From NCBI GenBank assembly GCA_963706445.1, contig OY970160.1:1344001-1408000 (forward strand): 64,000 nucleotides of DNA. Reading direction: 5' to 3'. This document shows positions 36,286-45,150 of the stretch, piece after piece. This DNA comes from an uncultured Nitrososphaerales archaeon. GTDB lineage: Archaea > Thermoproteota > Nitrososphaeria > Nitrososphaerales > Gagatemarchaeaceae. Position 1 is the stretch's first letter, and the number at the start of each line of letters is the position of its first letter. A model generated the notes under the pieces. The model was not told the origin of the DNA, ran no database searches, and saw nothing but the letters and a program-made list of their open reading frames with translations. The position numbers and the translations under genes were made by a program.

Positions 36286-37776
36286 CTATGTCAACCCCTT
36301 CAGGAACTCCGCGACGGGGAGCGCCGGATTCAGTATGACGTAAGACGTCACGATGAGGATGACCAGCGGGATCAGGTAGACTGCGAAGGCTGCGACGTCA
36401 GACCACCCCATGTCGTGTGCCTCGTGTCCCGGCTCGGGGGAAGACAGGACTGTCCTCTTGATCATCCAGAGGAAGTAGCCTGCAGTTATGACGGGGACCA
36501 GTATCGAGATCGCAGTAATGGCGGACGCCGAGATGCCGGCCGCTATCACCAAGAACTCGGCCAGGAAGCTAGAGAAGGGAGGCAGGCCCATGGCCGCCGC
36601 AGAGGCCAGCACGAGAATGGCAGCAGTCCTGGGCATGGAGGTCCCAAGCCCCTTCAGCAGCGGGATCTCTCTGGTCCCGGCCTGATGTTGGATGTACCCT
36701 GTGAGCATGAAGAGGCTCCCGATGGCGAGGGCGTGGGTGAACATCTGGAATATGGCCCCTTGAATACCGAGGACGTTGCCTGAGATCAGTGTGGCATAGG
36801 CTCCGAACAGGACGAAGCCCATGTGGTTGATGCTGGTGAACGCTATCATCTTCTTCAGGTCCTTCTGGAGGACGGCCGCGACGGCTCCGTAGAACATCGA
36901 GAACAGCCCTAGTATGAGGAACACCCAGGCGTACTGGACCGAAGCACCCGGGAACAGCCCTATGCTTATCCTGAGGAATCCGTAGCCGCCCATCTTCAGC
37001 AGAACCCCGGCCAGAAGGACCGAGATCGGGGACGGAGCCTCGACGTGGGCGTCAGGGAGCCAGGTGTGGAACGGGACAAGCGGGAGCTTGACGGCGAACC
37101 CGATGAAGGACGCTGCGAGTGGGACGTATTCGAGAGCGGCAGGTATCTGATGGCTCAGCAGCATGGCCTGGATGGTGGGGATGTCGAAGGATGGCGTGGG
37201 CATCCCCATGTAGAAGTAGAGGAAGCCGAACAGCATTATCGTGCTCCCGGTGAAGGTGAAGATGATGAATTTCAGGGCCGCGTACTTTCTGCGCGGCCCC
37301 CCCCAAACCCCTATGAAGAAGAACATCGGGATGAGGACGACCTCCCAGAAGATGTAGAACAGGATGAGGTTGAGGGAGGTGAACACCCCCATTATCGCGC
37401 CCTCGAAGAGGAAAATGAGCGAGTAGTATTCGGCCTCGTGGTGGTCGATCAGCTTCCTCGACCCGAATATCACGAGGACAGTGAGCAGGGCCGAGACGAA
37501 TAGAAGCGGAGAGCTGAGTCCGTCGGTCCCCAAGAAGTAGTCGAGGCCGAAGCTGCTGATGCTGACCCAGCTGTCCTTCTCCTGGAACAGGTACTGGCCC
37601 GGAGCGGGAGGAGCCGCGTACACCTGCCAGAAAACGTAGCCGGCTATGAGGAGGACGAAGGCTGACAGGCCGAGGGAAGCGTAGATTCCCAGCTTCTTGT
37701 TGACCTTGGTCAGGGCGTAGACGAGAGGCGCGGCGAAGACAGGAAGTGCGATCAGCAGCGAAAGGACGTAGCTCAT
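36286..37776 (-). CDS. nuoM: NADH-quinone oxidoreductase subunit M (copy 1)
   Basis: FYIFWE..LIPM, VKLPLVPFHTWLPDAHVEAP, LLKMGGYG. Confidence 0.95.
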   Translation of the reverse strand: MSYVLSLLIALPVFAAPLVYALTKVNKKLGIYASLGLSAFVLLIAGYVFWQVYAAPPAPGQYLFQEKDSWVSISSFGLDYFLGTDGLSSPLLFVSALLTVLVIFGSRKLIDHHEAEYYSLIFLFEGAIMGVFTSLNLILFYIFWEVVLIPMFFFIGVWGGPRRKYAALKFIIFTFTGSTIMLFGFLYFYMGMPTPSFDIPTIQAMLLSHQIPAALEYVPLAASFIGFAVKLPLVPFHTWLPDAHVEAPSPISVLLAGVLLKMGGYGFLRISIGLFPGASVQYAWVFLILGLFSMFYGAVAAVLQKDLKKMIAFTSINHMGFVLFGAYATLISGNVLGIQGAIFQMFTHALAIGSLFMLTGYIQHQAGTREIPLLKGLGTSMPRTAAILVLASAAAMGLPPFSSFLAEFLVIAAGISASAITAISILVPVITAGYFLWMIKRTVLSSPEPGHEAHDMGWSDVAAFAVYLIPLVILIVTSYVILNPALPVAEFLKGLT

Positions 37777-39965
37777 GGGAGAGGCACCCCCACGCCCGCC
37801 CGCCAGATGGCGAGCAGGAACAGTACCACGAGCACCAGTATGCCGAAGGCGAAGACCTGGGCGTACTCCTCGACGATCCCGGTCTGGATCCTTCTGAAGG
37901 CCCTCGAGAGATCCTGACCTAACTCAGAGAACCCGTTGGCGGCCCCGTCCACGATGTTGACGTCGACCCAGTTGCCGATGGTGGAGGCATAGACCCCGAA
38001 CAAGGAGCCTGCGCTGTTGATTCTGAACAAGCCCCGGAAGTCGAACACGTCGCTCAGCCACCTGGACGCGGCGAGGGGGGCGTTAACGAACACCTTGTAG
38101 TAAATCGCGTTGATGTACCACCTCTTCTCAAGGAAGTTGTAAAGGCCGTGCATGAATCCGGTCTGGCCGACGAACCGCGTAGGTGGGACCCTCCGGATGA
38201 TGTAGATACCGTAGGCAGCCACGAAGCCGAGGACTACGATGGCCAGGGTGAGCCCGGCGGGGGCCCAATTGACCGCGCCTGACGGCGGTGCCAGAGAAGC
38301 CGTGGGGAAGAGTGCTACGATGTAGTTCTGTGCTGCGGCCTGGAGCGAAGCGTCGATGTTCAGCGCGGGGATGCCGAGTCCAGCGAAGGCGGTCACCCCG
38401 ATGATGACGGTTAGCCCCGCGAGAATCGTGTAGGGGACCCACATTATCGGGCTAGGCTCATGGACGTGATGGCCCTGGCCCTCGACCTCGGCGAGCCTCT
38501 TGCTGCTGTCTCCGTAGAATACCATCCCCAGCATCCTGAACGAGTAGAAGGCGGTCATCCCGGCGGTAAGGGCTCCGACTATGAAGAGGCCGTACTGCCC
38601 TGCCCCCCAGGCGGCGCCAAGGACTGCGTCTTTACTCCAGAAGCCGCTGAAGGGAGGGATCCCCGAGAGGGAGGCGACGGCGATGAGCACCGCCGCGAAT
38701 GTCAGTTTCATCTTGTTTCTCATCCCACCCATGTCGCTGATGTACTTCGAGTCGGCCGCGTGGATGAGCGCGCCCGCGGCGAGGAACAGGCACGCCTTGA
38801 AGATGGCGTGGCTCATCAGCTGGTAGAGAGCGGCAGAGAGGCCGTCGGAGAAGTTGACCGACAGGCCCGCGACCCCCACTGCGAGCATCATGTAGCCGAT
38901 CTGCGACACCGTCGAATAAGCGAGGATCTTCTTGAGCTCAAAGCCGACCAGCGCCTGGCTCGCGGCCAGCACGGCGGTGAAGGCCCCGATCCAAGCTACC
39001 GTCAGGAAGAACGGCTGCACCGTGGCAATGCCGAAGCCTGCGGTACCGATGGCGATGAAGTAGAAGATAGGGGCGATTCTCGCGACAAGGACCACCCCGG
39101 CCTTGACCATGGTCGCGGCGTGGATCAGAGCAGAGACAGGGGCGGGGCCGGCCATGGCGTCTGGGAGCCACTCGTGCAGGGGGAACTGGGCGGACTTTCC
39201 TACCGCTCCACCGAAAATCAGGAGCGCGACCGGGACAAGAAGGCCATTGCTGTACAGGTTCTGGAACCATGACCCTTTGTCGGCGGCGAGCTGATAGTAG
39301 TTGAACGTCCCCGAGTAGAAGAAGAGTATCAGGATCCCTGCCAGCATGGCGACATCCCCTATCCTCGTCATGACGAAGGCCTTCATCCCCGCCTGTGAAG
39401 GGGAGTATGCCTGGTCCTCGCCGAGGACCTTCTCTCCCGGAGTTCCGACCCAGTCCTTGGTCTCGTCTTTCCAGTAATGCCCGATCAGCGCGTAGCTGCA
39501 GAGTCCCACCATCTCCCATCCGATGAATAGCGAAAGGAGGTTGTCGGAGAGGACGATGAGCTGCATGCTCCCGATGAACAGGGAGATGAAGAAGAAGTAA
39601 CGGTTGTGGCCCCCGTCGTCCTTCATGTACTCCAGACTGTAGAAGACGATGAGGAAGCTGACCCAGGCCACGACGTTTGCGAGTATGGCCGTGTATGAAT
39701 CGGTGAGCACGCCCATTGTGATATTCAGGCCCGAGATCCAGGGGACGCTGACGGTCAGAGGTCCGACGTTGGAGATGGTGATGGGCTGGCCCTCCAGGAC
39801 CGGGAGGAGCATGATCAGTGCGAATCCAGCGGAGAGCAAGGCGAACGCTGCGGCTGCGTAATCGCCCATCCTGCCGAGCTTCCTAAGCGCGATTGTGACG
39901 AGGGCGCCAGCGTAGGGGAGTATGAAGATCAGCCAGATGAAGTAGGACGGGATGGCGAAGCTCAT
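37773..39965 (-). CDS. nuoL: NADH-quinone oxidoreductase subunit L
   Basis: GKSAQFPLHEWLPDAMAGPAPVSALIHAATMV, LAYSTVSQIGYM, HAIFKA; 730 aa. Confidence 0.96.
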   Translation of the reverse strand: MSFAIPSYFIWLIFILPYAGALVTIALRKLGRMGDYAAAAFALLSAGFALIMLLPVLEGQPITISNVGPLTVSVPWISGLNITMGVLTDSYTAILANVVAWVSFLIVFYSLEYMKDDGGHNRYFFFISLFIGSMQLIVLSDNLLSLFIGWEMVGLCSYALIGHYWKDETKDWVGTPGEKVLGEDQAYSPSQAGMKAFVMTRIGDVAMLAGILILFFYSGTFNYYQLAADKGSWFQNLYSNGLLVPVALLIFGGAVGKSAQFPLHEWLPDAMAGPAPVSALIHAATMVKAGVVLVARIAPIFYFIAIGTAGFGIATVQPFFLTVAWIGAFTAVLAASQALVGFELKKILAYSTVSQIGYMMLAVGVAGLSVNFSDGLSAALYQLMSHAIFKACLFLAAGALIHAADSKYISDMGGMRNKMKLTFAAVLIAVASLSGIPPFSGFWSKDAVLGAAWGAGQYGLFIVGALTAGMTAFYSFRMLGMVFYGDSSKRLAEVEGQGHHVHEPSPIMWVPYTILAGLTVIIGVTAFAGLGIPALNIDASLQAAAQNYIVALFPTASLAPPSGAVNWAPAGLTLAIVVLGFVAAYGIYIIRRVPPTRFVGQTGFMHGLYNFLEKRWYINAIYYKVFVNAPLAASRWLSDVFDFRGLFRINSAGSLFGVYASTIGNWVDVNIVDGAANGFSELGQDLSRAFRRIQTGIVEEYAQVFAFGILVLVVLFLLAIWRAGVGVPLP

Positions 39966-39966
39966 C

Positions 39967-41475
39967 TCAGCCTAGCACTCCTGTACTGAATATGCCGGCG
40001 AAGCCTGTAAGGAATTTCGTCACGATGTCTGGGTAGATGCCGATGAGTATCGAAGCCACGACAATGGCCAGGAGCGGGAGGGTCATCGTCAGGGGTGGGT
40101 CTTTGGCCGCGTCGAGCCCTGGAGCCTGAGGCCCGAAGAAGATCTTCTTGATGGGCCAGAACGTGTATGCGACTGTCAGCAGGGTCGCTATTATGCCAAG
40201 CAGGGCGACGACCATGTAGAGGGATGAGCCCTGGGCGCCCTGAGAGAAGATCCCGGCGAACATGATCCACTCCGCCTGGAACCCGCTGGTTGGAGGGACC
40301 GCGGAGAGAATCAGCGCACCGAGGACGAAGAGCGCGGCCGTGAACGGCATTTTGGCCGCGAGGCCTCCCATTTTCTTGACGTCCCTCAGCCCCGTCTGCG
40401 TTAGGAGAATACCGGCTACGGAGAACAGCACGAACTTGCCGAGGATGTGGCTCCCGAAGTAGAACACCCCTCCCACCGCGCCGAGGGCAGAGGCGCTCGC
40501 CAGACCTAGGATGGAGTAGGCGTTCTGGCTCATGGTCGACCAGGCGAAGATGTACTTCACGTCGTTCTGGGCGAGGGTGACAGCCCCCCCGTAGAACATG
40601 GTCAGGACAGCCCAGGCCATGAGTGGGAGGCTGAAGGAATGGAACACTGTCGGCATCTCGAAGAACAGGAGCCGGGCGATTACGTACGCACCCATCCCCG
40701 ACACTATCGCCATCGTGGGAGCGAACGAAGTCGGGGGCTCGGCCTCGGTGATGGGGAGCCACATATGGAGACCGAAGATGCCCATCTTCAGGAGCCATCC
40801 CACGAGAATCAGGGCCGCTATCCAATAGGCCAGGGAGCTGGACTGGGCGGCGGTCAGTGAAGAAATGTCGAAGCTCCCCGTGGCGGAATATGCCAGCGCT
40901 ATACCGGCGAGGAAGACGAAGGCGCCTAGCTGGTTCCAGATGATGTAGATTATCCCGACCCTTTCTTTCTGGACGTAGCCGAACAGACTGATTATGATGA
41001 AGGTGGGGATCAGGACGAGCTCCAGGAACAGATAGAGCTCGATCAGGTTCGTCGAGAGGACGATCCCGACCAGCCCCGAGGCAACGAGGAGGAAGCTCAT
41101 GTAGTAGACCCCGTACCTTGCGGGTCGGTCTTCCCCGTAGAGGCTCTTGATCCTGTTCTGCATGTAGGGCATGGAGTAGATTGCCGTGGCGGCCAGAACA
41201 AGGTTGACCAGAATAGCGACGGGGAACGACAGGCCGTCAGCGAGGAACCCGAAGGTCAACCCAGCCGTCGGAGCCCAAGTATAGGACTCGGTGAGAGGGG
41301 AGCCTCCTGAAAAGAGCTGGGACCAACCTCCTCCAATCAGGACAAACGTTGTGAACAGGAGGGCGACGAACGCGATCCAGCCGACGTGCCTCCCCAACTT
41401 CGGGGCGGCGAGGTAGCAAGCGGCCGCAGCGGCTAGCGGTATCACTACCGATTGAAGTAGAAGATATTGTGACAC
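39967..41475 (-). CDS. nuoM: Second NuoM-like antiporter subunit
   Basis: LADGLS, LFLELVLIP, LKMGIFGLHMWLP..EAEPP, MGGLA.KMP; located between nuoK and nuoL. Confidence 0.85.
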   Translation of the reverse strand: MSQYLLLQSVVIPLAAAAACYLAAPKLGRHVGWIAFVALLFTTFVLIGGGWSQLFSGGSPLTESYTWAPTAGLTFGFLADGLSFPVAILVNLVLAATAIYSMPYMQNRIKSLYGEDRPARYGVYYMSFLLVASGLVGIVLSTNLIELYLFLELVLIPTFIIISLFGYVQKERVGIIYIIWNQLGAFVFLAGIALAYSATGSFDISSLTAAQSSSLAYWIAALILVGWLLKMGIFGLHMWLPITEAEPPTSFAPTMAIVSGMGAYVIARLLFFEMPTVFHSFSLPLMAWAVLTMFYGGAVTLAQNDVKYIFAWSTMSQNAYSILGLASASALGAVGGVFYFGSHILGKFVLFSVAGILLTQTGLRDVKKMGGLAAKMPFTAALFVLGALILSAVPPTSGFQAEWIMFAGIFSQGAQGSSLYMVVALLGIIATLLTVAYTFWPIKKIFFGPQAPGLDAAKDPPLTMTLPLLAIVVASILIGIYPDIVTKFLTGFAGIFSTGVLG

Positions 41476-41531: not shown

Positions 41532-41861
41532 TTATCCCTCCATGGACTTCAGTTCGCTGACGTCCACATCCTGGTGGAGCCGGTAGGCGACCACCACTAT
41601 CGCAAGTATCACTGCAGCCTCGGCCGCCGCCAGAGCTATCGAGAACAGGACGAAGGTCTGCCCCAGGGCGTTGGGGGCAACCGCGGCGCTTCCTTCGAAG
41701 GGAAGGTATTGACCGAAGGCGATGAAATTCAGGTTGGCAGCGTTGATCATCAGCTCGACGGCGAAGAGCAGCCGGAGGGCGTTCTTCTTGGTCACCAGCC
41801 CGTAGACGCCGATGCCGAAGAGCATGGCCGAGACTACGACGAAATCGCTCAGGTCATTCAT
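41532..41861 (-). CDS. nuoK: NADH-quinone oxidoreductase subunit K
   Basis: AVELMINAANLNF, AAAEAAV. Confidence 0.95.
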   Translation of the reverse strand: MNDLSDFVVVSAMLFGIGVYGLVTKKNALRLLFAVELMINAANLNFIAFGQYLPFEGSAAVAPNALGQTFVLFSIALAAAEAAVILAIVVVAYRLHQDVDVSELKSMEG

Positions 41862-42364
41862 TGACCCTTGTCCTCCTTGTCAGCCCTCGAAAGTGTGAGA
41901 GCCCCTACCACAGACGCGGCTAGCACCAGGGCAAGCACCAGAAGAATCGGGGCGTAGCCCGTTGAAATGAGCTGACCTATATCGACGAACGTCGCGGTGT
42001 TGACGATGTTGGTGAATTGGGCCAGGTTGGTGTCGACCACCGCAAAGATGAGGGCCACAGCGATGGCAGCGCCCGTCATGATCCCGGCCAGCTTGGTTAG
42101 CGATGTAGGGGGGAGCTCCTTCGACCACTTCTCCTCGCGGACGAGCATGACGGTGAAGAGGATTAGGACCGCTACCGCTCCGATGTAGACGGCGATCTGG
42201 AAGACGGCGACGTAGGGGGCGTTGAGAAGGAAGAACAGGGTCGCGACCCCGAAGAGTGAGCCGGCGAGCCCGATGGCACCGTAGATGATCTCCTTCGCTT
42301 CGAGGGCGACGATGGCGCTCCCGAGGGTGAGGACGGCCATCCCGATGAAGACGATGTCAGCCGT
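41858..42364 (-). CDS. nuoJ: NADH-quinone oxidoreductase subunit J
   Basis: LNAPYVAVFQIAVYIGAVAVLILF. First ATG is at 42340; an upstream ACG at 42364 would give (M)ADIVFIGMAVL. Confidence 0.9.
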   Translation of the reverse strand, partial: TADIVFIGMAVLTLGSAIVALEAKEIIYGAIGLAGSLFGVATLFFLLNAPYVAVFQIAVYIGAVAVLILFTVMLVREEKWSKELPPTSLTKLAGIMTGAAIAVALIFAVVDTNLAQFTNIVNTATFVDIGQLISTGYAPILLVLALVLAASVVGALTLSRADKEDKGQ

Positions 42365-43976
42365 ATCTGACCTCTCCCTTCTCGGTGTCGAACTCGACCT
42401 TGTACTTCTTCCCCTCCAACTTCGGAGGGACCGCGAGCATGTCAGGGGTGTACTTCAGCCCCATCTTGTCGTAGGCGGACAGCTCATAGTCGTTGGTCAT
42501 GAACAGAGCGTCGAAGGGACAAGCATCCACACACAGGCCGCAAAAAACGCAATTATGGACAGAAATATTTGCGGCAATATAGCTATTATCTCCCTCAACC
42601 TCAAAGTTTTGCACAAAATAATCCTTCACCTCTCGGATGTCTATCTTGACGACTGGCGAGACAATCATTCCATCCGTCAGATGCACGTAGCTGTGGGAGA
42701 CTTCGTTGTTCTTTGCGGGGACATCAACCAGTTGCCCCATGGCTTCAACATATGGAGTGTGTACTGTCACGGAATAGCAGAGTTTTCGAGCTTTCTGTCT
42801 TTCTGTACTAATCGAGGAGAGTATACCGATACGCCCCAGCATGTAGTGCATCTGCAAAGCCAAGTCCTTCGAAGTCGTTCGAGTTGTGAAGAAATTCGAG
42901 TGCATCTTGGTCTTGTATGCGTAGTGTTTGTTGGAGTAATGCCCGTCGCCCCAGAACTCTCCGCGCACTATGTCCTTGATGTTCTCGACTGGGAGCAGAA
43001 CCATTGACCAAGGAAGCTTCTTTTCGTCGCAATGACGGCCGAACTGGGAGAAGAACGATGCGACTCGGACCGAGTCTACGCAAAGCTTCAACCCCAGGGA
43101 ATCTGGATCAGGTTTGACCGAGACCTCTGCGCCGAAAACCTTGGCGACGGCCTGCGTAATGTCCTGCTTGAGATCCACTTCGTTCTTGTGGATATCGAAG
43201 GAGACCCTATATCGGTCTGAGGAGCCTTCGGCGAGATAGTATCCAATCAGGCGCATGAGTTCCGCAGTGACAGGCATAGAGACCAACTCCGTCGTGAACG
43301 AACCGCCTTTTCCAGCTGGATGGTAGAGTTCGTAGGTGTACTGGATCACTTCCGCTGGGAGTTCTTCGCTGATTATCGGCCTGGTAAGGTATGTTCGGTA
43401 CTTGATTTCATTCGCAAAGAGCCACGAAGTACCCTTCTCACTATACACGAGGATTGGGTGGTCCTCTGTGGTGGTCAGGGGCTCGAAGCTGCCGAGGGTC
43501 CTAAAGGTGAAGAGCTTCCCAGTGTAGCTCCGACTAAAGAGCCTCGACACCCTTCTGAACTTCCCTGTGTGAGTGAGAACTCTGTCCCCAACCCGGATTT
43601 CTGAGATGGGTTTGACTCCGTCGATGGTGATGATGGGTGTGTCCGGAGGCACGCACCTCCCATAGTCAACCGCGGGCCAGATGTCCTTTTTGTTCTGGGG
43701 CCGTCCCTTGGTGACCTTCTGCATGTCAATGGCGACAGCGACCCCGTCGCATGCGATGGCACAGAGCTGGCACCCTGTGCACTTCTCAAAATACAATATG
43801 TGCCGCCCCTTGAACCCGGCGAGACCCACCCCCTGCTTGGCGTCATACTGGTACCCGGGCCCTTCGAGGTCGAGCTTCTGCTCCGGGTAGCGGAGGGTCA
43901 TCCTCGGGTGGAAGAAATGCCTGACCCCGGACCAGGTGGCGACGAAGACGCCTTTGATGTATGACCAGGTGTTCAT
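42357..43976 (-). CDS. nuoI: NADH-quinone oxidoreductase subunit I interrupted by an intein
   Basis: Exteins give a 171-aa NuoI with CTGCQLCAIAC and CVFCGLCVDACP ferredoxin motifs, separated by a 368-aa insert. Confidence 0.95.
   Translation of the reverse strand: MNTWSYIKGVFVATWSGVRHFFHPRMTLRYPEQKLDLEGPGYQYDAKQGVGLAGFKGRHILYFEKCTGCQLCAIACDGVAVAIDMQKVTKGRPQNKKDIWPAVDYGRCVPPDTPIITIDGVKPISEIRVGDRVLTHTGKFRRVSRLFSRSYTGKLFTFRTLGSFEPLTTTEDHPILVYSEKGTSWLFANEIKYRTYLTRPIISEELPAEVIQYTYELYHPAGKGGSFTTELVSMPVTAELMRLIGYYLAEGSSDRYRVSFDIHKNEVDLKQDITQAVAKVFGAEVSVKPDPDSLGLKLCVDSVRVASFFSQFGRHCDEKKLPWSMVLLPVENIKDIVRGEFWGDGHYSNKHYAYKTKMHSNFFTTRTTSKDLALQMHYMLGRIGILSSISTERQKARKLCYSVTVHTPYVEAMGQLVDVPAKNNEVSHSYVHLTDGMIVSPVVKIDIREVKDYFVQNFEVEGDNSYIAANISVHNCVFCGLCVDACPFDALFMTNDYELSAYDKMGLKYTPDMLAVPPKLEGKKYKVEFDTEKGEVRYG
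42552..43655 (-). mobile_element. Class 1 intein with LAGLIDADG homing endonuclease in nuoI
   Basis: Block A CVPPDTPI, block B TTEDHP (TxxH), LAGLIDADG motifs LIGYYLAEG and IVRGEFWGDG, blocks F/G VQNFEVEGDNSYIA..SVHN followed by a +1 Cys. Confidence 0.95.
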
Positions 43977-43977
43977 C

Positions 43978-45150
43978 TTACTTCACTATCCCCGCTGAGA
44001 TGATGACCATGGTGATGAATATGTTCGCAAAGGCGAGGGCTAGGAGCTTGACCCACCCGGCCCTGAGGAGCATGTCGATCCTGAGCCGGGGCATTATCGA
44101 CCTCGGCAGCATCATCAGAATCATGACGACTGTGACCTTGGCGATGAACCAGACTTCTGGAGGGACAGGCCCGGGCCCGAGCCAGCCGCCAAGAAAGAAC
44201 GTCGTGAAGAGCCCCGCCATGATGTACATGCGGGTGAAGTTAGCGAGCTGAAACGTCCCGAAGAGCATGCTCGAGTACTCTGTCTGCCAGCCGGCGACGA
44301 GCTCGCTGTCAGCTTCGGGGATGTCGAAGGGGATCCGCTCAAGCTCGGCCAGGGCTCCAATGTAGAAGACAATGGCTCCAAGAGGCTGAAGGATGATGTA
44401 CCAAACACCATTCTGGGCCGTGACGATGCCCATCAGGTTGAGAGAACCGGACAACAAGACTGCTCCGACAAGCGAGAGGATCATAGGGATCTCATAGGCG
44501 ACGAGCTGGTGCAGGGCCCTGAGCCCTCCCAAGAACGGGTACTTGCTGTTGCTCGCCCACCCCGCTAGGAGCACGACAAGGGGGGTGAAGCCAAGGATGG
44601 CGAAGATGAGGACCGCCCCGACCGAGGGGTTCGCTATGTAGGTCGTCGGCGACAGAGGGACGAGAGCGATAAGGGCCCCGGCCACCGCCATGAGCGCAAA
44701 AGGTACGGCCAGGAAGGTCGCCCTGTCGACCCCGTCCGGGATGATTATCTCTTTGAAAGCGAGCTTGAAGAAGTCGGCGACGTTCTGGGCGATTCCCTCC
44801 ACTCTCCCTGCGTTCATGGGCCCGGTCCTGAGCTGGATCTTGGCTGTCATCTTCCGCTCGACCCACCCCATGAAGATGGTGCCGTACACCGCCACAAAGG
44901 TGAACCCGGGGAAGGTGGTCAGTGCGAACAGGGTCTTGTAAGGCTCCGTAGAAATGAGGTTGAGCTGGAACTGCAGGAACTGGTCGGGCTTCACCGTCAT
45001 CAGGGCGAAGATGTCGGGGGAGAAGTGAAACTCGGCGTATAGTATGTAATAAATCGGGACTAGAAGGACGACAGAGACAAGGGCGACCCAGAATACGTCT
45101 ATCAGAATCCGTTTCACGAAGTCTTCGAAGGTCGTGATGGGCTTCGACAT
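43978..45150 (-). CDS. nuoH: NADH-quinone oxidoreductase subunit H
   Basis: ERKMTAKIQLRTGP, ADFFKL..KE, SNSKY, RIPFDIPEADSELVAG, PRLRID. Confidence 0.96.
   Translation of the reverse strand: MSKPITTFEDFVKRILIDVFWVALVSVVLLVPIYYILYAEFHFSPDIFALMTVKPDQFLQFQLNLISTEPYKTLFALTTFPGFTFVAVYGTIFMGWVERKMTAKIQLRTGPMNAGRVEGIAQNVADFFKLAFKEIIIPDGVDRATFLAVPFALMAVAGALIALVPLSPTTYIANPSVGAVLIFAILGFTPLVVLLAGWASNSKYPFLGGLRALHQLVAYEIPMILSLVGAVLLSGSLNLMGIVTAQNGVWYIILQPLGAIVFYIGALAELERIPFDIPEADSELVAGWQTEYSSMLFGTFQLANFTRMYIMAGLFTTFFLGGWLGPGPVPPEVWFIAKVTVVMILMMLPRSIMPRLRIDMLLRAGWVKLLALAFANIFITMVIISAGIVK

Follow-up and report, generated by a model that had tools for sequence, protein, structure and literature searches.

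Several endonuclease-bearing class-1 inteins have been solved, among them TliVMA and PhoVMA (7qsu, 7qss, 7qst), PI-SceI (1vde, 1lws), PI-PfuI (1dq3) and PI-PkoII (2cw7), and in each a Hint domain is interrupted by a two-motif LAGLIDADG endonuclease. The subject of this work is an insertion of the same build in nuoI, a gene for a subunit of respiratory complex I, in 64,000 nucleotides (nt) of DNA from an uncultured Nitrososphaerales archaeon (contig OY970160.1, assembly GCA_963706445.1, positions 1,344,001 to 1,408,000; this whole stretch is called the window, and positions are given within it). The insert also shares with the solved inteins Cys1, a C-terminal His-Asn and a +1 nucleophile. It differs from them in identity, which is only 12-16%, and in having as its host a respiratory iron-sulfur (Fe-S) protein, not an ATPase, polymerase or ribonucleotide reductase. 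We read it as a class-1 (Cys1 / His-Asn / Cys+1) intein with a LAGLIDADG homing endonuclease, a selfish mobile element, and put the probability of this reading at roughly 80%. So read, it extends the host range of inteins to respiratory complex I.

A second group of known inteins is close in context. The mycobacterial SufB intein splices conditionally in an Fe-S assembly protein (PMC8891592), and DnaB intein 1 of M. smegmatis is an oxidative-stress sensor (PMC6195587). Like the NuoI intein, these sit in an Fe-S or redox-relevant context and have catalytic cysteines that can be trapped. Among sequences from outside NuoI, SufB inteins are some of the NuoI intein's best matches (30-34% identity). 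Their hosts and sites differ, and the +1 Cys in NuoI is itself a cluster ligand. Condition-dependent splicing has been measured for the SufB and DnaB inteins. The coincidence of splice nucleophile and Fe-S ligand makes this locus a natural substrate for asking whether splicing competes with, or senses, cluster insertion.

The clade studied here carries inteins at two neighboring sites, a and b. A precedent is given by Novikova et al. 2016 (PMC4760082), where DnaB intein sites a and c are two residues apart, so that separate insertion points again lie a few residues from one another in one conserved motif. By comparison with that account, the NuoI sites are six residues apart, both are cluster-ligand cysteines, their inteins are homologous, and some alleles hold both. 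Another intein in a non-replication archaeal Fe-S enzyme is that of the radical SAM protein tetraether lipid synthase, Tes (NCBIfam NF045703); the Tes model matches the endonuclease half of the NuoI intein at 34 bits, a weak and intein-confined match, and host and site differ.

An earlier note, drawn up from the letters of the window, had called the insertion site unusual. This stands for the literature, where our searches turned up no report of an intein in NuoI or complex I; the 2016 survey by Novikova et al. (PMC4760082) does not mention one in its main text. It does not stand for the databases, where more than 300 proteins carry the insertion. Public labels for intein-bearing NuoI read '4Fe-4S binding protein', 'LAGLIDADG family homing endonuclease' or 'hypothetical protein', and some automatic JGI labels read 'NADH:ubiquinone oxidoreductase subunit I/intein/homing endonuclease'. 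The element is ordinary in kind, and its allele is common in databases and only automatically labelled. What is new here is the pair of sites, the tally across a genus, the mini-intein and double forms, and a synonymous-site test of transfer.

A class-1 intein splits NuoI at an Fe-S ligand

The insert separates two parts of a recognizable NuoI. The gene lies between nuoH and nuoJ and encodes two CxxCxxCxxxC(P) motifs, one at residues 66-77 and one at 476-487. Its match to the NuoI model TIGR01971 is broken by the insert into two parts, which cover model residues 5-84 and 65-120. Because the match is split in this way, the precursor scores 85.6 bits against a cut-off of 113 and falls below all NuoI equivalog cut-offs. 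In metabolic reconstructions of metagenome-assembled genomes (MAGs) of this kind, complex I may therefore be taken for incomplete in error. Deleting residues 108-475 leaves a 171-amino-acid (aa) protein that aligns co-linearly with the empty alleles of sister species at 82-88% identity. With arrows marking the splice points, the junctions read DYGR↓CVPPDT...ISVHN↓CVFCGLCVDACP, placing the intein between R107 and C476. The splicing blocks C108, T170-xx-H173, FVQNFEVEGDNSY, H474-N475 and C476 are all present and are invariant across 23 homologues.

Domain and structure searches agree with this assignment. On the precursor, Fer4 and LAGLIDADG_3 (28.3 bits against a threshold of 22.5) exceed their Pfam thresholds, and Hint_2 and Intein_splicing fall narrowly under theirs. 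A single-sequence phmmer search of PDB sequences with the intein returned no match at E <= 0.01, and a profile of the 23 homologues matched PI-PkoII (2cw7), the TliVMA intein (7qsu), the KlbA intein and gp41-1. The AlphaFold2 model of the precursor has a predicted local distance difference test score (pLDDT) of ~85-95 over residues 108-475 and is poor over the exteins, which are modelled without clusters. Its best Foldseek matches are the TliVMA/PhoVMA inteins (E 4.7e-21, target template modelling score, TM, 0.73 for 7qsu), with PI-SceI, PI-PfuI and PI-PkoII also matched (E range 4.7e-21 to 3.8e-13), and the central domain resembles I-DmoI (TM ~0.7). Both catalytic acidic residues, E250 and D344, are present, and the E and D are kept in 13 of 13 site-a inteins of the genus. 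The domain thus fits a monomeric two-motif endonuclease, in which two LAGLIDADG helices, each with a catalytic acidic residue at its end, lie on an alpha-beta-beta-alpha-beta-beta-alpha core.

A profile alignment to Thermus thermophilus Nqo9 (2fug/4hea) places CVFCGLCVDACP on R97-C98-IF-C101-GL-C104-EEA-C108-P, with C476 on Cys98. The +1 nucleophile is therefore the first Cys of the second ferredoxin-type motif. In the 2x[4Fe-4S] ferredoxin topology, the first three cysteines of motif 2 and the last of motif 1 bind one cluster, which in NuoI we take to be N6b. Before splicing, C476 sits in the intein active site and is unusable as a cluster ligand.

By the standard route, nuoI would be translated as a 539-aa precursor from which the Hint domain would excise itself through an N-S acyl shift at C108, trans-thioesterification to C476, cyclization of N475 and a final S-N shift. 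R107 would then be joined to C476, giving the 171-aa NuoI, whose second motif, CVFCGLCVDACP, would be able to ligate [4Fe-4S] clusters. In homing, the endonuclease would cut intein-free nuoI at the conserved motif-coding sequence, and repair would copy the intein in.

The insert has a GC content of 0.511 and is poorer in GC than its surroundings: the two exteins have 0.601 and 0.562, nuoH and nuoJ 0.58-0.61, and the window as a whole 0.587. GC content at third codon positions (GC3) in the source genome is 0.64 in the intein against 0.82 in the exteins. Such a difference might also arise if foreign intein sequence had been misplaced into nuoI during assembly or binning. We give this explanation almost no credence: the source genome is a single 1.82-Mb contig, and more than 300 proteins, from JGI, ENA, NCBI and Logan assemblies that are independent of one another, have in-frame insertions with identical junctions. 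The earlier note had named misassembly among the things that would undo its proposal, and the recurrence of the junctions speaks against it. That proposal described a 368-aa intein of the form C...TxxH...HN behind DYGR in the open reading frame (ORF) at 42357-43976, a +1 nucleophile at the first Cys of the second Fe-S motif, two LAGLIDADG motifs with their acidic residues kept, and an insert more AT-rich than its flanks, and each of these features was recovered in place.

Two sites within one cluster-binding motif

In a collection of 5.8 billion proteins, 305 relatives have the length of the precursor. Many of the aligned relatives are longer (~886-916 aa) and carry two inteins in one motif. 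Site a, R↓CVFCGL, is the position occupied in the source genome. Site b, CVFCGL↓C...SN↓CVDACP, lies six residues further on, before the third Cys (Nqo9 Cys104), so that the two sites are 6 codons, or 18 bp, apart. Intein b is 368-372 aa long, mostly ends in Thr-Ser-Asn, and is homologous to intein a and co-linear with it from end to end (30-32% identity, E 6e-62). Alleles with both full inteins (for example P0002, P0016 and L128) leave a six-residue internal extein, CVFCGL, and their existence means that any blocking of homing at site b by an occupied site a is not absolute. In a further form, of ~715 aa, site b holds a full intein and site a a mini-intein of 172-181 aa that lacks the endonuclease (L050, L051, L064, L048, L093).

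Every species genome of the genus with a nuoI gene, 46 in all, entered our tally. Fifteen hold an empty allele (171 aa), 13 hold intein a only, 13 hold intein b only, and 6 hold mini-a plus b; the classes total 47, since G049, a genome with ~8% contamination, has an a-only allele as well as a mini-a plus b allele. The search suggested by the earlier note, for NuoI inteins at this site and intein-free relatives, thus found both. Among 52 complete alleles on metagenome contigs, 25 have no intein, 15 have intein a and 9 have intein b; a+b, mini-a+b and mini-a alone occur once each. In one metagenome allele (L151, Ga0187766_10036929) site a is occupied by a 172-aa mini-intein and site b is empty, so mini-a is not strictly tied to intein b, though all six mini-a genomes of the genus have b. 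Empty alleles showed no discriminating pattern of 'immunity' substitutions at the target site. One genus thereby holds every stage of a homing cycle (empty, full, mini and double alleles, and two rival sites), which makes it a compact system for the study of intein population dynamics in uncultured soil archaea.

In a 301-genome sample of the order, the long frames among the nuoI frames listed occur only in the source family, in several genera, and the frames listed for ammonia-oxidizer families encode 165-311 aa. This tally takes in two unpublished genomes, G279 and G153, and no specific claim depends on either. In a wider search of 1.84 billion cluster representatives, Aigarchaeota-labelled NuoI carry inteins at sites a and b, and Bathyarchaeota-labelled NuoI-like proteins, in a 48-member cluster, carry site-b inteins. 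Three proteins with Aigarchaeota or Nitrososphaeria labels (P0121, P0126 and P0130; 651, 663 and 1029 aa) carry intein a, b or both and have an extra N-extein insertion of ~130 aa between motif 1 and DYGR.

Related inteins were also seen in other hosts. A 488-aa metagenome protein, P0138, carries one (34% identity) at the first Cys of a CIADGIC...CP motif, in a host resembling a zinc-containing ferredoxin (NF041165, 88 bits, below cut-off), so this intein lineage also occupies a ferredoxin motif outside NuoI. The junction HY(V/I)EG↓C...HN↓C(T/S)AP is common to eight of the best non-NuoI matches (P0136, P0141, P0142, P0143, P0152, P0155, P0160 and P0174), and the one of them that was scanned, P0142, is a SufB (TIGR01980, 439 bits).

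Turnover of the inteins and selection on them

The allele classes change often from one lineage to the next. A tree of the joined exteins calls for no fewer than 17 changes among the four states, against a possible minimum of 3, and well-supported sister pairs place an empty allele (G056) beside an a-bearing one (G023), and a mini-a+b allele (G060) beside a b-only one (G018). We compared the proportion of synonymous differences (pS) in inteins with that in host genes, here the exteins with nuoJ, nuoK and nuoM. Between G023 and G055, pS is 0.48 in host genes and 0.12 in intein a (Fisher 2.5e-26), and between G014 and G063 it is 0.26 in host genes and 0.02 in intein b (Fisher 7e-22), so that in these two species pairs intein synonymous divergence is 4 to 13 times below that of the surrounding host genes. 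The opposite case also occurs, with a host pS of ~0.4 and a saturated intein pS of 0.82 between G055 and G044. Such incongruence between intein and host is a prediction of repeated homing after speciation. Taken with the patchy distribution within the genus, it shows recent horizontal transfer within the clade, and the suggestion of the earlier note that the element is possibly still mobile is supported to that extent. As evidence for site-specific cleavage of empty alleles and for homing, it is indirect, though strong for the clade.

Selective constraint is as strong on the endonuclease domain as on the splicing domain, with a ratio of nonsynonymous to synonymous differences (pN/pS) of 0.13 against the closest copy, L117, and of nonsynonymous to synonymous substitution rates (dN/dS) of 0.08-0.5 in pairs that are not saturated. 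By these ratios the domain is under purifying selection. The endonuclease of the source genome's copy may still be active. Composition gives a further hint of transfer. Across the genus GC3 is lower in inteins (0.53-0.84) than in exteins (0.71-0.93), and in extein codons 109-120 (window ~42495-42548) it is 0.50 in the source genome, 0.71 in a alleles, 0.53 in b alleles and 0.83 in empty alleles. This dip beside occupied sites is suggestive of short co-conversion tracts imported with the AT-richer element, with which it is consistent.

Several points weigh against reading the insert as a splicing and homing intein. Block F carries Asn where many inteins have Asp, and both splicing and DNA cleavage by this intein are predicted activities. 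The tree of joined exteins rests on only 513 nt. The GC3 dip reaches p = 0.05 for the source genome alone, and the relatives are non-independent. The intein of the source genome is synonymously saturated against every relative compared, the metagenome loci all being near saturation (pS >= 0.5), so that the evidence for recent transfer and for a cutting endonuclease is evidence about the clade and not about that copy.

Could splicing sense redox or metal status?

Selfish inteins generally sit at conserved catalytic or ligand residues. The simplest reading of the two sites in NuoI is that ligand cysteines are favored because the coding sequence there is invariant, the usual logic of homing sites. 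A different account would make the element a domesticated switch, in which a junction disulfide (C108, C476, C479) or the binding of Zn, Cu, Fe or an Fe-S cluster stalls splicing and couples complex I maturation to redox or metal status. The chemistry of the junction makes such stalling plausible: Cys1, Cys+1 and a +1/+4 CxxC pair meet there, within a dense set of thiols (C108, C476, C479, C482, C486), and both insertion sites of the clade are cluster-ligand cysteines of one motif. The closest non-NuoI sequence relatives include SufB inteins and the intein of the zinc-ferredoxin-like protein P0138, and redox- or stress-sensitive splicing is reported for other inteins, the mycobacterial SufB and DnaB inteins among them (PMC8891592, PMC6195587, PMC4760082). 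The distribution of the element, however, argues against a fixed regulator. The intein is dispensable, with 15 of the 46 sister species and 25 of the 52 complete metagenome alleles empty; others have an intein before another Cys, a pattern more in keeping with a parasite; turnover is horizontal and parasite-like; and the distribution is patchy, where domestication would be marked by lineage-wide fixation independent of endonuclease activity. Placement at a ligand residue is itself expected of selfish inteins, since such sites keep the endonuclease target conserved. The gating of complex I assembly by thiol redox or metal status that the earlier note put forward is so far unsupported, and it is weakened by the sister species that do without the intein. 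We therefore regard a domesticated switch as unlikely.

A related and slightly less probable idea, which we hold only as a speculation, is that inteins at Cys1 and Cys3 of the motif together act as a checkpoint: C108, C476, C479 and C482, when oxidized or bound to metal or to a nascent cluster, would stall splicing, and hosts would keep the element partly for that benefit. If true, the entry of NuoI into complex I would be linked to the redox and iron-sulfur status of the cell.

The host gene and its organism

By its constraint, nuoI is still needed by the host. Extein dN/dS is 0.05-0.11 in intein-bearing lineages, and the nuoI reading frame and splice residues are intact in all intein-bearing copies, which implies that splicing must supply enough NuoI. 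From this constraint, and from the single canonical nuoI of the source genome, we infer that splicing is probably good enough to do so.

The source genome also holds a second complex-I-like cluster (G000:C1:1173445-1176783, L001), ~210 kb from the window, with NuoD-, NuoH-, NuoI- and NuoK-like genes. Its NuoI-like gene is intein-free, divergent and only 130 aa long, and all genes of the cluster score below NCBIfam equivalog cut-offs. The cluster leaves room for an account in which the insertion is dead, the intein does not splice, nuoI is inactive and its role has passed to the second cluster. Against this stand the fully open 539-codon frame of nuoI, splice residues conserved across 23 homologues, the extein dN/dS values, and the divergence of the paralogue, which lies under every NuoI equivalog cut-off and in a different module. 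We regard the 130-aa gene as a paralogue in another module rather than a spare nuoI, and consider a dead insertion very improbable. The NuoD-like protein of the second cluster has a C-terminus reading DPCFGCMDR, which we take to resemble the [NiFe]-ligand motif of group 4 hydrogenases.

Soil, peat and groundwater have yielded the relatives of the source genome, which are MAGs labelled as uncultured 'Nitrososphaerales/Thaumarchaeota archaeon'. Archaeal amoA was not found in three single-contig genomes of the genus (G000, which is the source genome, G011 and G016), and the same search recovered the gene in controls from two other families of the order (G035 and G038); the lineage is therefore not an ammonia oxidizer.

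Gene neighborhood and minor observations

The coordinates of the gene, its parts and its neighbors are collected in Table 1. Two antisense ORFs, 42285-43007 (+) and 43320-43604 (+), were treated as shadows of the minus-strand gene, which is strongly supported.

Table 1. Positions in the window of the nuoI precursor, its extein and intein parts, and the adjoining nuo genes.
Feature	Position	Strand	Remarks
nuoH	43978..45150	(-)	immediately upstream of nuoI; Pfam NADHdh, 1.2e-95
nuoI precursor ORF	42357..43976	(-)	539 aa + stop; N-extein, intein, C-extein
N-extein, residues 1-107	43656..43976	(-)	ends AVDYGR; 82-90% identical to relatives' N-exteins
First Fe-S motif, C66-x2-C69-x2-C72-x3-C76-D	43746-43781	(-)	in N-extein
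Intein, residues 108-475	42552-43655	(-)	368 aa
Intein N-terminal splicing region, residues 108-209	43350..43655	(-)	retained in relatives' mini-inteins
Cys1 of intein (C108)	43653-43655	(-)	
Intein block B, TTTEDHP (T170-E-D-H173)	43455-43475	(-)	
LAGLIDADG homing-endonuclease domain, residues ~210-432	42681..43349	(-)	boundaries from mini-a deletion
LAGLIDADG motif 1, LIGYYLAEGS (E250)	43221-43250	(-)	
LAGLIDADG motif 2, GEFWGDGHY (D344)	42936-42962	(-)	
Intein C-terminal splicing region, residues 433-475	42552..42680	(-)	block F FVQNFEVEGDNSY; block G ends H474-N475
C-extein, residues 476-539	42360..42551	(-)	starts at +1 Cys
+1 Cys (C476)	42549-42551	(-)	opens second Fe-S motif
Second Fe-S motif, CVFCGLCVDACP, residues 476-487	42516-42551	(-)	
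Empty site b, between L481 and C482	42531..42536	(-)	relatives carry second, homologous intein there
nuoJ	41858-42340	(-)	downstream of nuoI
nuoK	41532-41861	(-)	downstream of nuoI
nuoM-like	39967-41475	(-)	downstream of nuoI
nuoL	37773-39965	(-)	downstream of nuoI

Elsewhere in the source genome, only three other LAGLIDADG or intein-like matches were seen, at C1:283788-283937 (in a 1086-aa frame), C1:302855-303133 (372-aa) and C1:1709360-1710436 (600-aa), which places the NuoI intein among very few such elements in this genome.

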